Of a stretch of DNA of 64,000 nt, positions 19,966 through 27,024 are shown in pieces. The notes under the pieces were generated by a model. The model was not told the DNA's origin and did no database searches. It worked only from the letters and a program-made list of their open reading frames with translations. Both the position numbers and the translations under genes were made by a program. Numbering within the stretch: position 1 is the stretch's first letter; the number at the start of each line of letters is the position of its first letter. Source of the stretch: Planctomycetota bacterium (GTDB taxonomy: Bacteria > Planctomycetota > Phycisphaerae > WQYP01); assembly GCA_021790385.1 (NCBI GenBank), contig JAJYDW010000002.1, positions 7,551 to 71,550 on the forward strand. Direction: 5' to 3'.

Positions 19966-20058
19966 GACGAAGCTACGTCCTTTCTTATGCCCGCTCCAAC
20001 AGCGGACGACGCATTGTCTTGGAATACGCCGGGTCTTTCAAGGGCAGGATTGCGTGTT

Positions 20059-20667
20059 TTAGCCGGTGGCTGCACAGCGGACTTCCAGATACTCCAAAAT
20101 CAGGTGCAATATCACCTGATGCGCCTCCTGAATGGGCGCGGTGCGCTGGCTGGGTACCACCACCGATAAATCGCACAGTCGCAGATTTTCCCCACCACCT
20201 TTTCCCAGCAAGCCGATCACTTTTCCGCCCGCCTGGTGCATGGCATGACTGGCGCGAATCAGATTCTGGCTTTGGCCGCTGGAACTGAAAATCAGGAGCA
20301 CGTCGTCAGGCTTGGCGAAGGCTTGGACTTGCCGGGCAAACACCGTGGCAAAATCCCAGTCGTTACCTATGCAGGTTAAGGCCGTCCCATCCGCCGCCAG
20401 ACAAATGGCCGGTAACGCCCGTCGATCCGGCCGCGAATATTTGCCGGTAATTTCCTGGGCCAGATGCATGGCCTCCGCGGCGGAACCTCCGTTACCCGCG
20501 GTCAGCAGCTTGTTGCCACCCAGCAAGGCATCAGCCACGGCTGCGGCGATCTGCTCGATGGCCGAAAGTTGATCTTCCAGTGCCGCAATCACACGGCTGG
20601 AATCACGAATACAGTCCACCAGCAACTGCTTCCTTGCGGGTGGTGTCAAAGAGGAGGATGTGTTCAC
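20059..20667 (-). CDS. gmhA: SIS-domain phosphoheptose isomerase (D-sedoheptulose-7-phosphate isomerase)
   Basis: 202 aa. An SIS fold with GNGGSAAEA.H.A.E and a C-terminal ..E..H..ILH pattern typical of GmhA/DiaA. The link to heptose use is supported by the GT9 heptosyltransferase and kdsA elsewhere in the window. Confidence 0.75.
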   Translation of the reverse strand: MNTSSSLTPPARKQLLVDCIRDSSRVIAALEDQLSAIEQIAAAVADALLGGNKLLTAGNGGSAAEAMHLAQEITGKYSRPDRRALPAICLAADGTALTCIGNDWDFATVFARQVQAFAKPDDVLLIFSSSGQSQNLIRASHAMHQAGGKVIGLLGKGGGENLRLCDLSVVVPSQRTAPIQEAHQVILHLILEYLEVRCAATG

Positions 20668-21443
20668 GGACCAGGTCTCCTTAAAAAATACTTCCGGACA
20701 GGGCCTTCAGCCAGGCCCAACATACCCAGCGCCAACGCAGCGCTGATCGCCGTTGGCTCCCACCATGGCTGCAAAACTGGCATGGGAGTATTTTGTCCCA
20801 AACCCGTAAATTGATACATCAGCCTTGCATGCGACCACCAAAACCAGTTGAATCGCAAGGCCTGATCGGTACCATCCAGCAGCCACAACACTGGACAGGC
20901 ATTGACTATCAGTCCCAACAGCCGGTCATCGCGCCATTGGGTCAGATCCGCCAGCAGCGGCATGAGTACCACCGGCAAGGCGAGCAGGGCCATGGCCAGA
21001 GTAGCCGTAGTTGTCACCGCCACACTCGGCCCCAGCGGGTGCAACAGCCGGGTCAGCGCTACACACAGCAGCATCCATGCTGCCAGAATCGCCACAATGC
21101 GCAGTACCACCAGCATCGGCAGTTCGCCGGAACTGATTGTCGCAAGAACCAATGGCGGCACCAACGCCAGCACGATCAGGCCCAACCCGGTGGCTGTCAC
21201 TGCAGGGCGCGTGGCCTGCGCCGCTATCATAATCGCTGCCATGGTGGCCATAAGCATCAGCAACATCAGCCATCCGGCCAGCACAGCCGCCGCAGGCATG
21301 GCGGTGGCAATCCAGCCGGTACCGCCATGAACCGCACCGGAAATGGCTGCCCAGGCAACGGTGGCTCCTACCGCCAAAACCCCGGCCGGCCAAGCCGCAC
21401 CGGCGAATTCCGACACGGACAAAAATGACAAAGTCGAATTCAT
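20664..21443 (-). CDS. Hypothetical polytopic membrane protein
   Basis: 259 aa, highly hydrophobic and Ala/Leu-rich, with roughly 7 predicted TM segments. It overlaps the gmhA start by 4 nt, which suggests translational coupling. Confidence 0.5.
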   Translation of the reverse strand: MNSTLSFLSVSEFAGAAWPAGVLAVGATVAWAAISGAVHGGTGWIATAMPAAAVLAGWLMLLMLMATMAAIMIAAQATRPAVTATGLGLIVLALVPPLVLATISSGELPMLVVLRIVAILAAWMLLCVALTRLLHPLGPSVAVTTTATLAMALLALPVVLMPLLADLTQWRDDRLLGLIVNACPVLWLLDGTDQALRFNWFWWSHARLMYQFTGLGQNTPMPVLQPWWEPTAISAALALGMLGLAEGPVRKYFLRRPGP

Positions 21444-21609
21444 AGCTGCGGCATTTTACCCGAAAGATATCGGCGTGCCATTTCTATTCATGCTTTCCTG
21501 CGGCTGGTGCGGCAAGATTTCAGGGGGTATGAGGCTGTCAGGAAATAAAGTGTATGAATAGGCGCAGGCATTTTGAGCGCCGGCGAGGCACATACCCACC
21601 CGCACCCCG

Positions 21610-21728
21610 TTGAGCCATGGATGCCCAAATCCCGATGCGTTAGGGATCAAGCCATCGGGATTGAGCCACTGATGCCCAAATTTCCTGGCGCATCCGGAAC
21701 AGGCCACCGTAACAAGGATCAAGCCATC
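21610..21728. repeat. Imperfect direct repeats in intergenic region (TTGAGCCAyGGATGCCCAAAT x2; GGATCAAGCCATC x2)
   Basis: The 21-nt unit occurs at 21610-21630 and again at 21661-21681 with two mismatches. The 13-nt unit occurs at 21644-21656 and again at 21716-21728. Confidence 0.5.
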
Positions 21729-21762
21729 AGTATCTCGCGGGCCTTAGTCCGCGCCCCCTGCT

Positions 21763-21978
21763 CTACTGTTCAACTGTTCTGTTCTCGCGGGCCGATGAAT
21801 GGACCGGAGCCGGTTTGGACACAGGTGCGCTTTGTGTTGTGGCCGGCGCGGTTTCAGACTTTCCGGATTTCAACACCCGGGCAAAACTTATGATAATCAG
21901 CGTCAAAAGCGTCAGCAGGTAAATCCGCAGGACCAGAAGGGATGTCCTGACCAGCGGCGTCATTTTCATTCGTGGCAT
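21763..21978 (-). CDS. Hypothetical small single-pass membrane protein
   Basis: 71 aa. It has one hydrophobic helix (LLVLRIYLLTLLTLIIISF). It lies 28 nt downstream of the MgtE-N/CBS gene on the same strand. Confidence 0.3.
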   Translation of the reverse strand: MPRMKMTPLVRTSLLVLRIYLLTLLTLIIISFARVLKSGKSETAPATTQSAPVSKPAPVHSSARENRTVEQ

Positions 21979-22005
21979 CGAGCACCTGTTTCTATACGGA
22001 CTACG

Positions 22006-23337
22006 TCATACCCGCAAACGACTCATCAAGCCTTTGGTAATGTCATTGAAATGAATCACGCCCAGCAGATGATCACGATGATCCACCACCGGCAACATCC
22101 GAAAATGATACTTGAGAAACAATTCCGCCAGATCGTCGCGGGTGTCATCAGCAGCCGCAGTTACCACCGGCGAAACCATTAAATCGCCGAGTATCTGGTT
22201 ATCGCGTGCCAATACCAGGTCGCGTAGATCCACCACGCCCAGCAGCGTTTTATCTGCCGGTTGAACCACGTAAAGGTACGATATCGCCTCGTGCGGTTTG
22301 CCGGATCCGCGTATGGACGCCAGCACCGTGCCGACCGTTGTTTCCTTCGCAAACGCCAGATAATCCTCGTTCAGCATGGACTGGGCCACAGCTTCTCTTT
22401 GCGAGAGCAGTTCCCCAATTCGTTGCGACTGCTCCGCGGGCAGCAACCGCATCATCTTTACCGCGTCTTCATGCGGCAAAACGGAAAGTAAATCCGCGAG
22501 CTGCGGAATGGACATTTCCTGCAATATTTTGGTAGCTCGTTCCTGCCGCAGGTCGGCGATAAGTTGGCGCTGGGTGCGCGGTTCGGCCTCCACGAGCGTT
22601 TCCGCCGCGGTATCGGGAGCCAGGGCGGAAAACAGGGCCTGCTGCTCCTTGCCGGTGAGCTCCTCCAGCGTGTCCGCTAAATCCTCCGGAGGAAGTTCCG
22701 CAATCTGTTTACGGGTTATGGATAACCTTACCGCATCCCGCGGCAAAGTATCTTCCAGGGAAAGTGGCTGCACATATTTCCAGTTGATGAGATGTTCACG
22801 GGCATGAAGTATCCGGGAAAGACCCCACCGGCGAAGAAATCCATTGAAGGAAATATCGACATGCACCAGAATCATGCGCTCGTGCGATACCAGCAGATGC
22901 ACATCATTGACCACCTCGGTGCGCCGGCCGTCCATATCAAAAATCGTCTTTCCCATCAGGTGCGATTCCAGCAATATCCATCCCGGCTGGTCAATGAAAC
23001 GTGGAAATCCTTTTCCACACTGCAGCGTGGCCGGATCAGGCTGCTCCGGTGCCGAAACAAAAATATAATCGTCATCAATGCGCGTTACTTTCGACCACGG
23101 AATCAACTCCACGGGTTTACCCCAACCATGTTCCACCAGTATGCCGGTGGCTTCAGGATAAGCATCTGCCATTTTGAAGGCAATGTCGGCTATTTTTCCA
23201 ACGCGATCGGCTATTGTCGCCAGACATATTTTGCGCCCACGCAGCTCGGAATAGTAAAAAGTCCGGTAATCACGAACACCATTGGCGGCACCGGCCGGCA
23301 TTGGCGGCAGAGAGGAGCCTGGTACTGGTTTGGGCAT
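22006..23337 (-). CDS. Soluble PRC-barrel + MgtE N-terminal domain + CBS-pair protein (no MgtE transmembrane pore)
   Basis: It contains an MgtE-N-like helical domain (LADTLEELTGKEQQALFSALAPDTAAETLVEAEP...LLSVLPHEDAVKMMRLLPAEQSQRIGELL), followed by two CBS motifs. The ORF ends at the point where the MgtE TM domain would normally begin. The N-terminus has PRC-barrel-like repeats. The start is ambiguous (23409, 23337 or 23301) because the upstream gene overlaps it. Confidence 0.65.
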   Translation of the reverse strand: MPKPVPGSSLPPMPAGAANGVRDYRTFYYSELRGRKICLATIADRVGKIADIAFKMADAYPEATGILVEHGWGKPVELIPWSKVTRIDDDYIFVSAPEQPDPATLQCGKGFPRFIDQPGWILLESHLMGKTIFDMDGRRTEVVNDVHLLVSHERMILVHVDISFNGFLRRWGLSRILHAREHLINWKYVQPLSLEDTLPRDAVRLSITRKQIAELPPEDLADTLEELTGKEQQALFSALAPDTAAETLVEAEPRTQRQLIADLRQERATKILQEMSIPQLADLLSVLPHEDAVKMMRLLPAEQSQRIGELLSQREAVAQSMLNEDYLAFAKETTVGTVLASIRGSGKPHEAISYLYVVQPADKTLLGVVDLRDLVLARDNQILGDLMVSPVVTAAADDTRDDLAELFLKYHFRMLPVVDHRDHLLGVIHFNDITKGLMSRLRV

Positions 23338-23353
23338 GGTGCGACTCCATCTA

Positions 23354-24724
23354 TTATAGCCAATGGAAAATGCGCCCGGCGCGATGCCAGAAAGCAGGTT
23401 CCATGACATCCGGAAATATCTGCGTTATACCATACAGTGTTGACACCAGAATAACGAATATGGCAATCGACCAATTGGCTATGTTCTGCCAGAGGGTATT
23501 GACATATTGCCCCATGACATCCTTATCGTTGAGAATCAGGATCAGAAAGAAAAGACTTGATGGCAGCAGCGTAACAGCCACCACCTGGACAAAAATAGTA
23601 ATGTCATTTTGCACCGCGACACTGGCTATCACGGAAACCACTCCCGCCAACATCAACATGACCACATACGCTACATAAAACCAGGGGGCATCGCGCACCG
23701 ACTTGTTGAGCGAATGCGCCCAGCCGAACAATTCACCCAGCGCCCAACTTGTGGACAGGGAAACACACAAAGCGCCCAGCAACCCCGCGTCAAATAGGCC
23801 AATGGCAAAAAGAACCTCAGCCCATCGGCCCCAATCGGTCCCGGCCGGCATAACCTTGGGCATCTGCAAGGCTCCCTGCTGCGCGGAAGTTACCACCATC
23901 TTTCCATGCGGATTGAAATAAAATACCCCCGCCGTGGCGATGATGATAAACGCCGCCACTACACACGTTAACAGCGAACCCGCAAAGGTATCAATTTTCC
24001 CCATCTTGATATCGTGAACGTCCATGCCCTTATCCACCACCGCTGACTGCTGAAAGAATATCTGCCACGGCGTTATCGTCGTCCCAATGTTGGCCATAAT
24101 CAGCGTAATCATGGCTGACATCGGCAAAATTCCCACCAATGTCGGTGCGCAAAACCCTTTTCCCACCGCCAGCCAGCCCTCTTTGACATTGCCGGTCTGC
24201 ATTGCCCAGAATGCCGCCGGAATGTAGACAAAATTAAACAGGCAGAACAGCATGGTCAATTTTTCAAAAGTCCAGTATTTCCCGGTCACCACAATTCCAA
24301 AAAGCAGCAGGGTAACACCCAGAAAAGTCAGCCAGGCGGGAATACCAAAAATGCTCATGGCCTGGGTCATGCCGATATATTCGGTCACCAGCGTCAGCCA
24401 GTTGACCACCGCCAGATCAAAGATTGAAAAACAGCCCCAGAACGGACCGAAGGAATCGAAAATGGCCTCCGCATGGCCGCGCTTGGTCACCGCACCAAGC
24501 CGCACCGTCATCTCCTGCACGTAATAGGCCATGGGCACCAGAATAATAAATGCCCACAGCAGATTGAACCCGGTCAACGCTCCGGTCTGAACGTACGTGG
24601 ATATCCCGCCGGCATCGTTATCGGCAATCATGGTTATCATGCCCGGACCAATCACCGCAGCCAGCAGCAGCATACGCCGGCGCGAACGGCCCAGGTAGTG
24701 AATAGCTTTATTAATCCAATACAC
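23354..24724 (-). CDS. NRAMP (SLC11) family transporter, non-canonical NRMT-like
   Basis: 456 aa with about 11 TM segments. TM1 reads GPGMITMIADNDAGGIST, aligning with MntH GPGFLVAVGYIDPGNWAT (DPGN becomes DAGG). The TM6 region reads TTITPWQ, aligning with the canonical MPH (M to T, H to W). Confidence 0.7.
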   Translation of the reverse strand: MYWINKAIHYLGRSRRRMLLLAAVIGPGMITMIADNDAGGISTYVQTGALTGFNLLWAFIILVPMAYYVQEMTVRLGAVTKRGHAEAIFDSFGPFWGCFSIFDLAVVNWLTLVTEYIGMTQAMSIFGIPAWLTFLGVTLLLFGIVVTGKYWTFEKLTMLFCLFNFVYIPAAFWAMQTGNVKEGWLAVGKGFCAPTLVGILPMSAMITLIMANIGTTITPWQIFFQQSAVVDKGMDVHDIKMGKIDTFAGSLLTCVVAAFIIIATAGVFYFNPHGKMVVTSAQQGALQMPKVMPAGTDWGRWAEVLFAIGLFDAGLLGALCVSLSTSWALGELFGWAHSLNKSVRDAPWFYVAYVVMLMLAGVVSVIASVAVQNDITIFVQVVAVTLLPSSLFFLILILNDKDVMGQYVNTLWQNIANWSIAIFVILVSTLYGITQIFPDVMEPAFWHRAGRIFHWL

Positions 24725-24783
24725 CGATCACCTGACCTGGTTAGACCCACTGTTCCCGGATTACACGCCTACCGGCCGTCGAA

Positions 24784-24811
24784 ATTATACAAACCACGTC
24801 GCAGATGTCAC
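24784..24811 (-). promoter_or_regulatory. Putative sigma-70-type promoter of the NRAMP-like gene (-35 GTGACA, 16-nt spacer, extended -10 TGTATAAT)
   Basis: The minus strand reads gtgacatctgcgacgtggtttgtataat. The TATAAT is about 60 nt upstream of the ATG at 24724. The call assumes an E. coli-like consensus applies in this organism. Confidence 0.35.
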
Positions 24812-25005
24812 CTTGAAAATATTTGTATTGTGTTAGCACAACCAACGCTGTGGGGCGAGTGTGGTCAAAATTTATCGCCGACTGTCTGCCTGCCCGGATG
24901 GACGTTTTCCCAGTTGTCGTGGCGAACTCATCCAGGCCGGCAAACCGGCTGGGCACCGTGCTCGCCAACCAGACGTGGGCCGTTGGGGGCCGTTTGCGGC
25001 TTCGA

Positions 25006-25040
25006 TAAAAAAGAAAAGCCCGGCCTATGGCCGGGCTGGG
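25006..25040 (-). terminator. Rho-independent terminator downstream of the His-rich secreted protein gene
   Basis: The minus strand forms a GC stem (agcccggcc atag gccgggct) followed by tttctttttt. Confidence 0.6.
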
Positions 25041-25076
25041 AGTTTGAAAGATTCTCTGCTTGCAGTCATCTGCAAC

Positions 25077-25565
25077 TTAGTTTCCTGGCGGCGGACCATG
25101 CCTATGGCCATGCCCACGACGCGGCTTGCCCATGTGCAGGGTTATCGTTCCCGCACTCACCGATTGGCCGGATACCTTCACCGGCCGACGCAAATGCCCA
25201 AAGCCCACACCACGTTTCATCGCCACAATACGATACATACCGGCTCGGGCATTGTTCACGGTGAAGGTACCATCATCGGCAGTTTTAGTAACACCAAAAA
25301 CACTCGTGTGCCAAACGGTCTGGCCGGGTTCAATGCCGCCCGGGCGCCGACCATGATGTCGCCCGTGGTGGTTCATTCGCGGTGGCAGCAGCATAAGGCG
25401 CACAAATGCGCCGGCCACCGGCTGACCGCTGCTGTCCACCACTTTGCCGGTAATGGTGCCCGTACCGGCATTGGGCTGAGCCTGAGCATTAGCCGCCAAG
25501 GCCAGTGAGAACGCCAAAGCCAGCACGCCGGCCATGGCCAGAGACCAGGAAGGTAGTCTTTTCAT
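25077..25565 (-). CDS. Secreted carboxypeptidase-regulatory-like (CarbopepD_reg) domain protein with His-rich segments
   Basis: 162 aa. It has a signal peptide, then GTITGKVVDSSGQPVAGAFV (the CarbopepD_reg signature), and His-rich stretches (NHHGRHHGRRPGG; RRGHGHRHGPPPGN). Confidence 0.6.
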   Translation of the reverse strand: MKRLPSWSLAMAGVLALAFSLALAANAQAQPNAGTGTITGKVVDSSGQPVAGAFVRLMLLPPRMNHHGRHHGRRPGGIEPGQTVWHTSVFGVTKTADDGTFTVNNARAGMYRIVAMKRGVGFGHLRRPVKVSGQSVSAGTITLHMGKPRRGHGHRHGPPPGN

Positions 25566-25713
25566 AGCAGTAACTCCTTAAAAAGTGAAAGGCGCTATTT
25601 CACGTAACCTCCGAATGAACGCCACCCGGATGGATCACGTCAAGTCCGCCCCCGTTTTGGACTACGCTAGCTACACGCAGCACAGCATCAAAGGTTACAG
25701 ATGCCAGTAAGTT

Positions 25714-27024
25714 TCAGGCTTTGTGCTTTCCCGCGGTCATATTTTTGATAATGGCATCGCCGAAAGCACTGCACTTCACTTCCGTAGCCCCGCTCATCAG
25801 TCGGGCAAAATCATAGGTTACAACGCGCTGCCCAATCGTTTGCTCCAGGCCGCGGACAATGGCATCCGCCGCTTCCTGCCAGCCAAGATATTCCAGCATC
25901 ATCACACCCGAAAGAATAACACTGCCCGGATTCACCTTATCCTGATTGGCGTACTTCGGAGCGGTGCCGTGCGTGGCTTCAAAAATGGCGTGCCCACTTT
26001 TGTAATTGATGTTGCCTCCCGGCGCAATGCCGATACCCCCTACTTGCGCCGCCAAAGCGTCGCTTAGATAATCGCCGTTGAGATTGAGCGTCGCAATCAC
26101 ATCAAAGTCTTCCGGACGGGTCAGCACCTGCTGCAAGGTGATATCCGCGATCGCATCTTTAATGACGAGGCCGCCGGGCAATTTGCACCACGGGCCGCCG
26201 TCAATTTCGACGGCTCCATATTTTTCCTTGGCGACCTGGTAACCCCAGTCCCGAAAGGCGCCGGACGTATATTTCATGATGTTGCCCTTATGCACCAGCG
26301 TTACACTTTTGCGCTTGTGCTGCAGGGCGTAGTCTATGGCCGAAGCCACCAGACGCTGGGAGCCTTCTTTGCTGACCGGCTTGATACCCACACCGCAATG
26401 GTCCGGAAAACGGATTTTAGCGTAGGATTTTGGAAACTCGGTCTTGAGGAACGCCAGCAGCTTTTTTGCTTCAGCGGAATCGGCGGCCCACTCGATGCCT
26501 GCATATATATCTTCCGTGTTTTCCCGGAAAATGACCATGTCCACAGCTTCCGGACGTTTGACCGGACTGGGCACTCCGTTAAAGTAGCGCACGGGACGCA
26601 GACATACATACAAATCCAGCAGTTGCCGCAGGGCCACATTTAGCGAACGAATACCGCCGCCGACCGGGGTCGTCAGCGGACCCTTGATGCCGACAAGAAA
26701 GTGCCGGAAGGCCGCAACGGTTTCTTCCGGCAGCCAGGCCTGGGCATCGCCTTCAGGCGTGCCGGTTTTGAATTTATTAAATGATTTTTCACCGGCATAC
26801 ACCTCCATCCAGCAAATGCGGCGTTTGCCGGCGTACACCACCTTGACCGCCGCATCAAACACGCGGACGCTGGCACGCCAGATATCAGCCCCGGTGCCAT
26901 CGCCTTCAATAAAGGGAATAATCGGATGATCGGGCACCTGCAGTTTGTTCTGCTGCCCCATGGTAATGGGCTGGCCGTCTGCTGGAACGCTGACATGGGC
27001 AAAACTGGGGATAGTAACTGTCAT
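25714..27024 (-). CDS. icd: Isocitrate dehydrogenase (NADP-dependent, prokaryotic Icd type)
   Basis: 436 aa from the internal ATG (cat at 27022-27024). N-terminal [14 protein letters not shown], a C-terminal [13 protein letters not shown] motif, and a typical isocitrate/isopropylmalate dehydrogenase fold. The upstream 95 codons of the ORF are not conserved, so I trimmed them. Confidence 0.9.

Follow-up and report, generated by a model that had tools for sequence, protein, structure and literature searches.

How is a magnesium carrier that works without proton coupling kept in check? NRMT-type transporters of the SLC11 family move Mg2+ down the membrane potential without coupling to protons; for this reason, some brake on uptake seems necessary, and the role of the MgtE-like protein encoded next to them has been at issue since 2014. 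A locus in a Planctomycetota bacterium raises this question again. It lies in a stretch of 64,000 nucleotides (nt), called here the window (assembly GCA_021790385.1, contig JAJYDW010000002.1, positions 7,551 to 71,550 of the forward strand). Three co-oriented open reading frames (ORFs) on its minus strand, at 23354-24724 (456 amino acids, aa), 22006-23409 (467 aa if the longest ORF is taken) and 21763-21978 (71 aa), form a three-gene nrmT operon with the transporter gene first, the gene for an MgtE-like sensor or partner protein second and a gene for a small membrane peptide third. Our preferred reading, to which we assign a probability of about 0.6, is that the operon codes for an NRMT Mg2+ importer, a soluble MgtE-type regulator and a membrane microprotein subunit.

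Part of this arrangement has been described. Shin et al. (2014, PLoS Genet, PMC4072509) found the majority of NrmT genes to adjoin a gene for MgtE's cytoplasmic N-terminal domain, speculated that the MgtE fragment gives 'cytoplasmic feedback regulation of transport' and named a metal-chaperone activity as its alternative role. The first-pass annotation of this DNA, made from the sequence alone, had taken the pairing for undescribed; it is already published, and close relatives of EleNRMT, the structurally solved NRMT of Eggerthella lenta, have the same neighbour. We found no mention of the MgtE-like partner in the later NRMT papers that we consulted. What appears to be new is the nrmT-first gene order, the fully soluble partner and a conserved microprotein of ~36 residues for which we found no description in the literature. 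This last element had been underrated in the first-pass annotation.

A conserved third gene behind nrmT and its partner

We scanned one genome per species with two invariant motifs of the partner protein, which gave 286 confirmed stretches, and examined the best 80 of these 286. The 80 loci span Planctomycetota, Acidobacteriota, Thermodesulfobacteriota/Syntrophales, Eisenbacteria, Verrucomicrobiota, Bacteroidota, Methylomirabilota and Anaerolineales. Wherever upstream DNA is available (75 loci), nrmT is immediately 5' of the partner gene and on the same strand, with estimated gaps mostly of -18 to +43 nt; the linkage of the two genes thus extends beyond the window genome. Each of the 80 loci has the peptide gene directly behind the sensor gene. 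In 79 of them it was recognised by its core pattern, MPR[IV][KQ][MT]T..[VT]K.ALYFLR.YL..LL.LI..KF, and the 80th (L042) has a GTG start. Co-occurrence of the three genes is strict and their spacing is tight, which we state with high confidence. No conserved neighbour beyond the trio was found around the related loci. The operon family is large and widespread, and the window locus is an ordinary representative of it.

Within this family, the position of the peptide gene varies. In two distant clades, represented by L091 (WOR-3, partner 38% identical) and L092 (partner 33% identical), the peptide is encoded between nrmT and the partner gene and has a 30-residue N-terminal extension (E-values of 1.6e-9 and 3.8e-12, respectively, with the hidden Markov model of the peptide). 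Thus, the trio survives a change of gene order. The contigs of two other distant representatives (P0245 and P0254) are too short for an informative gene context. No peptide homologue was found in the three loci checked in which the sensor gene comes first (Eggerthellaceae L081 and L084, Brocadiia L090). Three arrangements were therefore found: nrmT-partner-peptide, as in the window; nrmT-peptide-partner; and partner-nrmT, the partner having or lacking a helix of its own.

The peptide measures 36-37 aa in most phyla and 54-88 aa in Planctomycetota and Verrucomicrobiota, where a Pro/Ala/Thr-rich tail accounts for the greater length. That of the window (21763-21978, minus strand), which had been proposed to be a single-helix membrane peptide, is encoded by a real ORF preceded by AGGTG 5 nt upstream. 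Its conserved core (aa 1-36, 21871-21978), with one hydrophobic helix, is followed by the tail. In the family, residues M1, Y20 and F32 are invariant, T7, A13, L14, L17, L21 and L27 are nearly so, and R18 is shared by 59 of the 70 distinct cores.

Might the 71-aa ORF nevertheless be a chance ORF or a non-coding spacer, the functional unit being made of two genes? It belongs to no curated family, as comparisons with Pfam and NCBIfam gave chance-level matches alone (E>=0.013), and its 3' end is not marked by a terminator or any other feature, the fold 3' of the gene being no better than that of shuffled sequence (z=0.05). Every named protein among the 120 relatives listed is 'hypothetical'. This reading is contradicted by the conservation of the peptide in all 80 loci with invariant residues across phyla, by Shine-Dalgarno-like sequences upstream of the ORF in many loci and by the retention of the peptide when its position in the operon changes. 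There is in addition an excess of changes at third codon positions: among 78 distinct nucleotide versions of the gene, differences at codon positions 1, 2 and 3 number 45465, 24367 and 63947, respectively, and 40% of the differing codon pairs are synonymous. The peptide gene is protein-coding, and we consider a chance origin of the ORF extremely improbable.

A profile search with the peptide matched at least 712 database clusters (E<=0.001). The 120 relatives listed among the matches are 36-74 aa long and devoid of Pfam domains, and no fusion to another domain was found among them. Reverse look-ups from two database peptides recovered the series Nramp, MgtE_N-CBS partner and peptide in independent assemblies, with a PRC match in one of them.

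Several small membrane proteins, namely MgtS, MgtU and KdpF, stabilise ion transporters. Together with MgtR, they offer a possible analogy to the microprotein, as very short single-pass proteins encoded with, or acting on, a Mg2+ or K+ transporter. However, we found no sequence relationship with any of the four using Pfam and NCBIfam, and the partner here would be an SLC11 carrier with a soluble CBS protein rather than a P-type ATPase.

An NRMT-clade transporter and a pore-less MgtE module

The nrmT gene (23354-24724, minus strand) has a GTG start, and the N-terminus of its 456-aa product is conserved from residue 1 across related loci. The product matches Pfam Nramp (PF01566) with an E-value of 1.7e-66 over positions 1-356 of the 357 of the model, so that the SLC11/Nramp (LeuT-type) fold proposed at the outset is present. 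Its best match in the PDB is EleNRMT (7qia, E=2e-55, 192 bits, full-length alignment). In contrast, the structures of the aluminium transporter NRAT, of MntH/DMT and of human DMT1/NRAMP1 score at most 46 bits, with E-values of ~1e-10 for canonical MntH/DMT, and every NCBIfam MntH/Nramp model scores far under its cut-off.

The NRMT clade is defined by the consensus DxxG-TxxA/T (Ramanadane et al. 2022, PMC8806188). In the first transmembrane segment (TM1) of the window protein, the motif D37-A-G-G40 (24605-24616, minus strand) has the DxxG of NRMTs in place of the canonical DPGN and aligns with D55-A-G-G58 of EleNRMT. In TM6, T215-T-I-T218-P-W220 (24065-24082, minus strand) has TxxT in place of the canonical AxxM-P-H and aligns with T224-T-I-A227-P-W229 of EleNRMT, of which it is a TxxT rather than TxxA variant. 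Alignment with EleNRMT and MntH structures thus bears out the altered metal site, with DAGG in TM1 and TPW in TM6; the canonical site is not retained. The first-pass annotation had correctly noted the Met-to-Thr change in TM6 but overlooked the Ala-to-Thr change at T215, the counterpart of EleNRMT T224. Two canonical proton-pathway histidines of TM6b are replaced by W220 and Q225, as indicated by alignment with ScaDMT, and both are lost in EleNRMT as well. The TM3 Glu and the TM10 Gln are kept in both proteins (E115 aligning with EleNRMT E133 and Q380 with Q379). The signature is widespread in the family: NDAGG occurs in 70 of 70 related loci that include the TM1 region, and TM6 reads GTTITPW in 50 and GTTIAPW in 23 loci (73/75).

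On these sequence features, we assign the window transporter to the NRMT clade of SLC11 with high confidence. It shares fold, clade and the DxxG / TxxA-T signature with NrmT of Clostridium acetobutylicum (CA_C0685, PMC4072509) and with EleNRMT (PDB 7QIA, PMC8806188), and it has an extra C-terminal tail of 26 residues relative to characterised NRMTs. Its identity to an Eggerthellaceae NRMT, which in turn shares 91% of its residues with EleNRMT, is ~32%. Homology to EleNRMT and C. acetobutylicum NrmT leads us to expect that the window transporter imports Mg2+, and probably Mn2+, without proton coupling.

The partner gene lies downstream of nrmT on the same strand, as stated in the first-pass annotation, but the overlap reported there does not hold. 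An overlap of 56 nt arises solely if ATG 23409 is taken as the start of the partner. The lengths of 12 close homologues are 443-444 aa, 11 of these homologues cover 100% of the protein starting at ATG 23337, and GGAG is found 7 nt upstream of this codon. As the homologue lengths and the GGAG favour ATG 23337, nrmT and the partner gene are separated by 16 nt.

The 443-aa partner (22006-23337, minus strand) is the pore-less PRC, MgtE_N and CBS protein that had been predicted. It begins with a PRC-barrel domain (aa 26-98, 23044-23262; PF05239, E=6.3e-7), followed by a second beta-rich domain (aa 120-190, 22768-22980) in which the best-conserved motifs of the family are found, DGRRTEVVND and HVDxSFNGF (invariant columns); the equivalent stretch of the Eggerthellaceae partner gives a PRC match below threshold (E=0.0038). 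Then come a helical MgtE_N domain (aa 215-315, 22393-22695; PF03448, E=4.9e-21), which matches positions 21-248 of the TIGR00400 mgtE profile, and a CBS pair (aa 322-440, 22018-22374; E=1.5e-16). The protein ends right past CBS2, without a plug helix or membrane segment. The AlphaFold2 model (AF2, mean confidence pLDDT 68.5) comprises the PRC barrel, its most confident part, the second beta domain, the helical MgtE_N domain and two CBS units, and Foldseek searches with it place MgtE cytosolic domains at the top (2yvy, E=8.6e-18). Mean column identity of the partner is 70% across phyla.

The partner shares MgtE_N and the CBS pair with the gating module of Thermus thermophilus MgtE (2YVY/2YVX/5X9G; sequence E-values of 1e-24 to 1e-26). 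In contrast with that protein, it lacks the plug helix and the five-helix pore and has ~215 additional N-terminal residues, corresponding to the PRC barrel and the second beta domain. It ends 8 residues past the last position aligned to T. thermophilus MgtE, and its match to the TIGR00400 profile stops at position 249 of 450, even with the peptide appended. We mapped the MgtE ligands through this one pairwise alignment, with the Mg2+ sites listed by Maruyama et al. 2018 (PMC5882242) and the ATP-contact residues listed by Tomita et al. 2017 (PMC5529423). Three of the six Mg2+ ligands in the N domain and the CBS domains (sites Mg4-Mg7) are kept (E59=E246, D95=D282 and D247=D432), compared with five of the six ATP contacts (Y170=Y354, R187=R372, D188=D373, V207=V392 and F227=F412, with N203 replaced by V388). 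Given these proportions, nucleotide sensing by the partner would be at least as plausible as direct Mg2+ sensing.

Most proteins of the partner family are likewise predicted to be soluble. Of 131 complete representatives (clusters at 50% identity), 120 have no predicted membrane helix at their end, and some of these have Lys/Arg-rich tails. A single helix is present in one, and the other 10 are ~600 aa long and have, besides a plug helix, 4-6 predicted helices. The ~600-aa type (P0309, P0315, P0319, P0326, P0334, P0344, P0356, P0369 and P0388) has the same PRC/MgtE_N/CBS front, 32-35% identical over ~400 aa in, e.g., P0309, P0315 and P0344. Unlike the window partner, these proteins continue into an acidic plug helix and 4-6 membrane helices predicted from hydropathy, and they look like complete MgtE channels with an N-terminal PRC barrel. 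Six soluble members (P0317, P0335, P0365, P0368, P0372 and P0385) end in long Lys/Arg-rich tails (...KKKEKMKHVHRRRVKKK...), which could be an alternative, electrostatic means of membrane attachment.

The published gene order, 'mgtE-nramp' with the fragment upstream of nrmT, was described for the majority of operons, with an M-box in a subset of them (Shin et al., Fig. S5/S6, PMC4072509); we found it in loci of Eggerthellaceae and Brocadiia. Where nrmT codes for a close relative of EleNRMT (91% or 88% identical to it), a gene for a 450-aa PRC(weak)/MgtE_N/CBS protein ends 3-4 nt before nrmT. The Eggerthellaceae partner is homologous to that of the window along its entire length, PRC barrel included, with 30% identity over 421 residues, and the transporters are 32% identical. 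These matching neighbours indicate that a PRC/MgtE_N/CBS protein accompanies NRMT in both clades examined and is not peculiar to the window genome.

The window operon thus resembles the 'mgtE-nramp' operons (Acp2976-Acp2977 and Eggerthellaceae L081-L085) in that an NRMT gene adjoins a same-strand gene for a pore-less MgtE N-domain/CBS protein. It differs from them in its reversed order, from the subset just mentioned in the lack of an M-box, and in its separate microprotein gene, which has no counterpart in the three sensor-first loci checked. The partners also differ at their ends. In the Eggerthellaceae protein, CBS2 is followed by an acidic, plug-like segment and a single hydrophobic helix (...DAWDAIEEDVSSDKTQVTAAKIVGGIIGAVLFLVLYTMVLFQIIGYDWR), and its match to the mgtE profile reaches position 267, as against 249 for the window partner, which has neither a plug-like acidic helix nor a C-terminal membrane helix.

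Substrate and mode of action

How might the three proteins work together? The partner is a soluble protein that joins a PRC barrel and a second beta domain to the gating module of MgtE, i.e. its N-domain and CBS pair, without plug helix or pore. It may sense the cytosolic state, Mg2+ and/or an adenine nucleotide at the retained ATP site, and throttle the uniporter. The microprotein is predicted to span the membrane once, and its basic N-terminus suggests that this end is cytoplasmic. It may act as a subunit, embedded in the membrane, by which the soluble sensor is tethered or coupled to the transporter, and it would then do the job of the C-terminal membrane helix fused to the Eggerthellaceae sensor. 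The complementarity between peptide and fused helix is the reason why we infer that the peptide may stand in for the membrane element of the Eggerthellaceae partner.

These proposals do not all have the same strength. Regulation of the transporter by the MgtE-like module is the most reasonable idea, and we hold it with moderate confidence. Our confidence in the specific tethering mechanism of the microprotein is low, and the substrate, the direction of regulation and the physical contacts are those that we infer. In its strongest form, the proposal would make the microprotein an obligatory third subunit in a large class of NRMT systems, a membrane helix by which the soluble MgtE-like sensor docks on the SLC11 carrier and cytosolic Mg2+ or ATP status can gate a proton-uncoupled uniporter; we regard this version as tentative and rather doubtful.

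The link to magnesium comes from riboswitches. Rfam M-boxes are present on the same strand upstream of nrmT in four nrmT-first operons of Methylomirabilota and Deltaproteobacteria-like metagenome-assembled genomes (MAGs): L072 (4367-4543, 120 bits), L071 (1115-1291, 124 bits), L036 (3795-3972, 118 bits) and L058 (3932-4111, 95 bits). In L036 and L058, the two of these loci with a long gap, the M-boxes are 520-670 nt away from the nrmT start codon, with no ORF of substance in between. A covariance model built from these four sequences detected one more (L043, 4694-4872) among all 88 sources and none in the window. The count of 5 in 80 orthologous operons is a lower bound, as our own covariance model is narrow. 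By the reasoning of Shin et al., these M-boxes tie this type of operon to Mg2+ homeostasis; those of orthologues do not prove the substrate for the window locus.

The nrmT gene behind the M-box of L043 (5043-5960) is truncated to 305 aa and lacks TM1-3 including DAGG, and the partner and peptide genes of this locus are intact. The gene is either a pseudogene or an assembly artefact.

A number of observations weigh against a regulated Mg2+ importer with a microprotein subunit. When Acidobacterium capsulatum Acp2976 was co-expressed with Acp2977 in Bacillus subtilis, the fragment had no effect, and A. capsulatum NrmT behaved mainly as a Mn2+ importer, fully rescuing a Mn2+-transport mutant and weakly a Mg2+ mutant (PMC4072509). 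In the pairwise alignment, three of the six Mg2+ ligands of MgtE are lost from the window partner (D91 to P278, D226 to H411, which is invariant in the family, and D250 to K435), and the plug-helix ligands E258/D259 (sites Mg2/Mg3) have no counterpart in it. The leader of the window has no M-box, in agreement with the first-pass annotation; the Rfam scan of positions 20000-27000 found neither this nor any other family, even at E<=1. The sensor-first Brocadiia locus L090 has a soluble sensor and no peptide, i.e. neither membrane element, and the peptide is therefore not universally required.

Searches for a more direct tie between the microprotein and its presumed partners belong with these adverse points. 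The peptide has no detectable homology to the plug/TM1 region of MgtE, and we rejected the idea that it is a remnant of the plug helix or TM1 (hhalign probability of 0.2% for 70 cores against the plug and TM1 of ten full-length PRC-MgtE proteins). We saw no case in which the peptide is naturally fused to one of its partners. One candidate, P0074 (490 aa), merely has an N-terminal over-extension, and the long ORFs that cross nrmT and the CBS gene in Eisenbacteria arise out of frame in GC-rich DNA. Co-variation of peptide residue 18, where E and Q replace R in some lineages, with the partners was also considered: NRMT positions 179, 244 and 378 vary jointly in those lineages. The three positions are changed in L035 as well, where R18 is retained, and phylogeny therefore confounds the test.

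Does the system then serve mainly for manganese, or another transition metal, with a CBS protein that answers to Mn2+ or nucleotides rather than Mg2+? The rescue pattern obtained with A. capsulatum NrmT, which has an adjacent MgtE fragment (PMC4072509), is what this hypothesis would lead one to expect, and EleNRMT transports Mn2+ besides Mg2+ (PMC8806188). The loss of half of the acidic Mg2+ ligands, the invariant His at the position of the Mg5 ligand D226 and the lack of an M-box in the window also favour it. However, the TM6 Thr T215 is invariant, and its EleNRMT equivalent, T224, is required for Mg2+ to a much greater extent than for Mn2+ (PMC8806188). Five orthologous operons of the same gene order have a Mg2+ riboswitch in front of them, and no yybP-ykoY Mn2+ riboswitch was detected in the 29 loci of type I, the two Eggerthellaceae loci or the window region scanned. 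We thus judge a mainly manganese-importing system to be unlikely, at perhaps one chance in a handful.

The PRC/MgtE_N/CBS protein could also act as a metal buffer or chaperone, or as an assembly or stability factor, instead of a gate, with the peptide as a stabilising subunit like KdpF or MgtS. Stabilisation of ion transporters by MgtS, MgtU and KdpF provides a precedent, and co-transcription would merely ensure joint expression. The metal-chaperone activity listed by Shin et al. and the lack of effect of the fragment in the sole transport test, that of Acp2976/Acp2977, are in line with such a role (PMC4072509). Nevertheless, the module that has been retained is precisely the gating part of MgtE, with five of six ATP contacts, and a mean column identity of 70% across phyla is more than a simple buffer would seem to need. 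A buffering or stabilising function appears to us still less probable than a manganese importer, and a regulated Mg2+ importer remains our preferred reading.

Operon boundaries, neighbouring genes and significance

The first-pass annotation had placed a sigma-70 promoter ~60 nt upstream of nrmT, and we find there the sigma-70-like match GTGACA-16-TATAAT (24784-24811, minus strand), with 11 of 12 consensus positions and a -10 hexamer that ends 60 nt before the start codon. Farther upstream, an intrinsic-terminator-like hairpin with a T-run (25007-25037, minus strand; 9-bp stem with 8 GC pairs, then TTTCTTTTTT) belongs to the preceding gene (25077-25565) and marks the 5' boundary of the nrmT transcription unit. 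The promoter match is common only to the window and its nearest relative, L001. In the close relatives L002-L010, a different promoter-like site, GCGTGACAAA-N17-CATAAT, is located upstream of a longer leader (~150 nt), whose 5' hairpin is kept via compensatory changes. In the window (24725-24900, minus strand) and L001, part of this type of leader is deleted, and they have their own GTGACA-16-TATAAT instead. We considered a structured leader RNA in L002-L010 and set it aside, as consensus folding with RNAalifold gave weak support (-9.5 kcal/mol, with a covariation term of +0.4) and the region matches no Rfam family.

The closest public relative of the locus is the Planctomycetota MAG JAJZNX010000072, whose CBS protein is 99% identical to that of the window, and genes flanking the trio are common only to the closest relatives. 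Just upstream of the operon, behind its own terminator, the gene at 25077-25565 (minus strand) codes for a 162-aa protein with a hydrophobic, signal-peptide-like N-terminus and a CarboxypepD_reg-like domain broken by His/Arg/Gly-rich stretches (HHGRHHGRR, RRGHGHRHG). It is conserved only in L001, L005, L007 and L008. On the other side, a gene at 20664-21443 (minus strand) codes for a very hydrophobic protein of 259 aa with no Pfam or NCBIfam match. It overlaps by 4 nt a GmhA-like SIS-domain gene (20059-20667, minus strand), for which phosphoheptose isomerase models score below their cut-offs, and the pair is common only to L001, L007 and L008.

Two loci of the collection have unusual features. 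L003 and L009 are two different copies of the trio from one MAG, Phycisphaerae KM4311-08, with partners 88% and 83% identical to that of the window; they represent either two paralogous operons or a mixed bin. On the long-read Eisenbacteria chromosome of L037 (2908-7242), the nrmT frame is broken twice and rejoins the partner frame, which creates a spurious ORF of 1444 aa. We rejected it as an nrmT-partner fusion because it is a frameshifted reading, and the frame breaks are either sequencing indels or signs of a decaying gene.

What do these observations mean for the NRMT family? A full PRC/MgtE_N/CBS protein is the partner even beside NRMTs closely related to the solved EleNRMT. In one lineage, the Eggerthellaceae, the partner is anchored in the membrane by a helix of its own, and across a very broad range of bacteria the nrmT/partner pair is accompanied by a separate microprotein that lacks annotation. 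A test with two genes could miss regulation; therefore, reconstitution or complementation of nrmT-first systems should include all three genes. The microprotein is a useful lead for this very reason, as a fair functional test of such systems must change to include it. For genome annotation, a gene of 36-37 aa is conserved across phyla, and its named relatives among those listed are all 'hypothetical'. If the strongest form of our proposal is correct, the operon would encode a tripartite regulated carrier without a described counterpart among SLC11 transporters, and its third component would represent a new, widespread microprotein family that comprises at least 712 sequence clusters and spans at least eight phyla.

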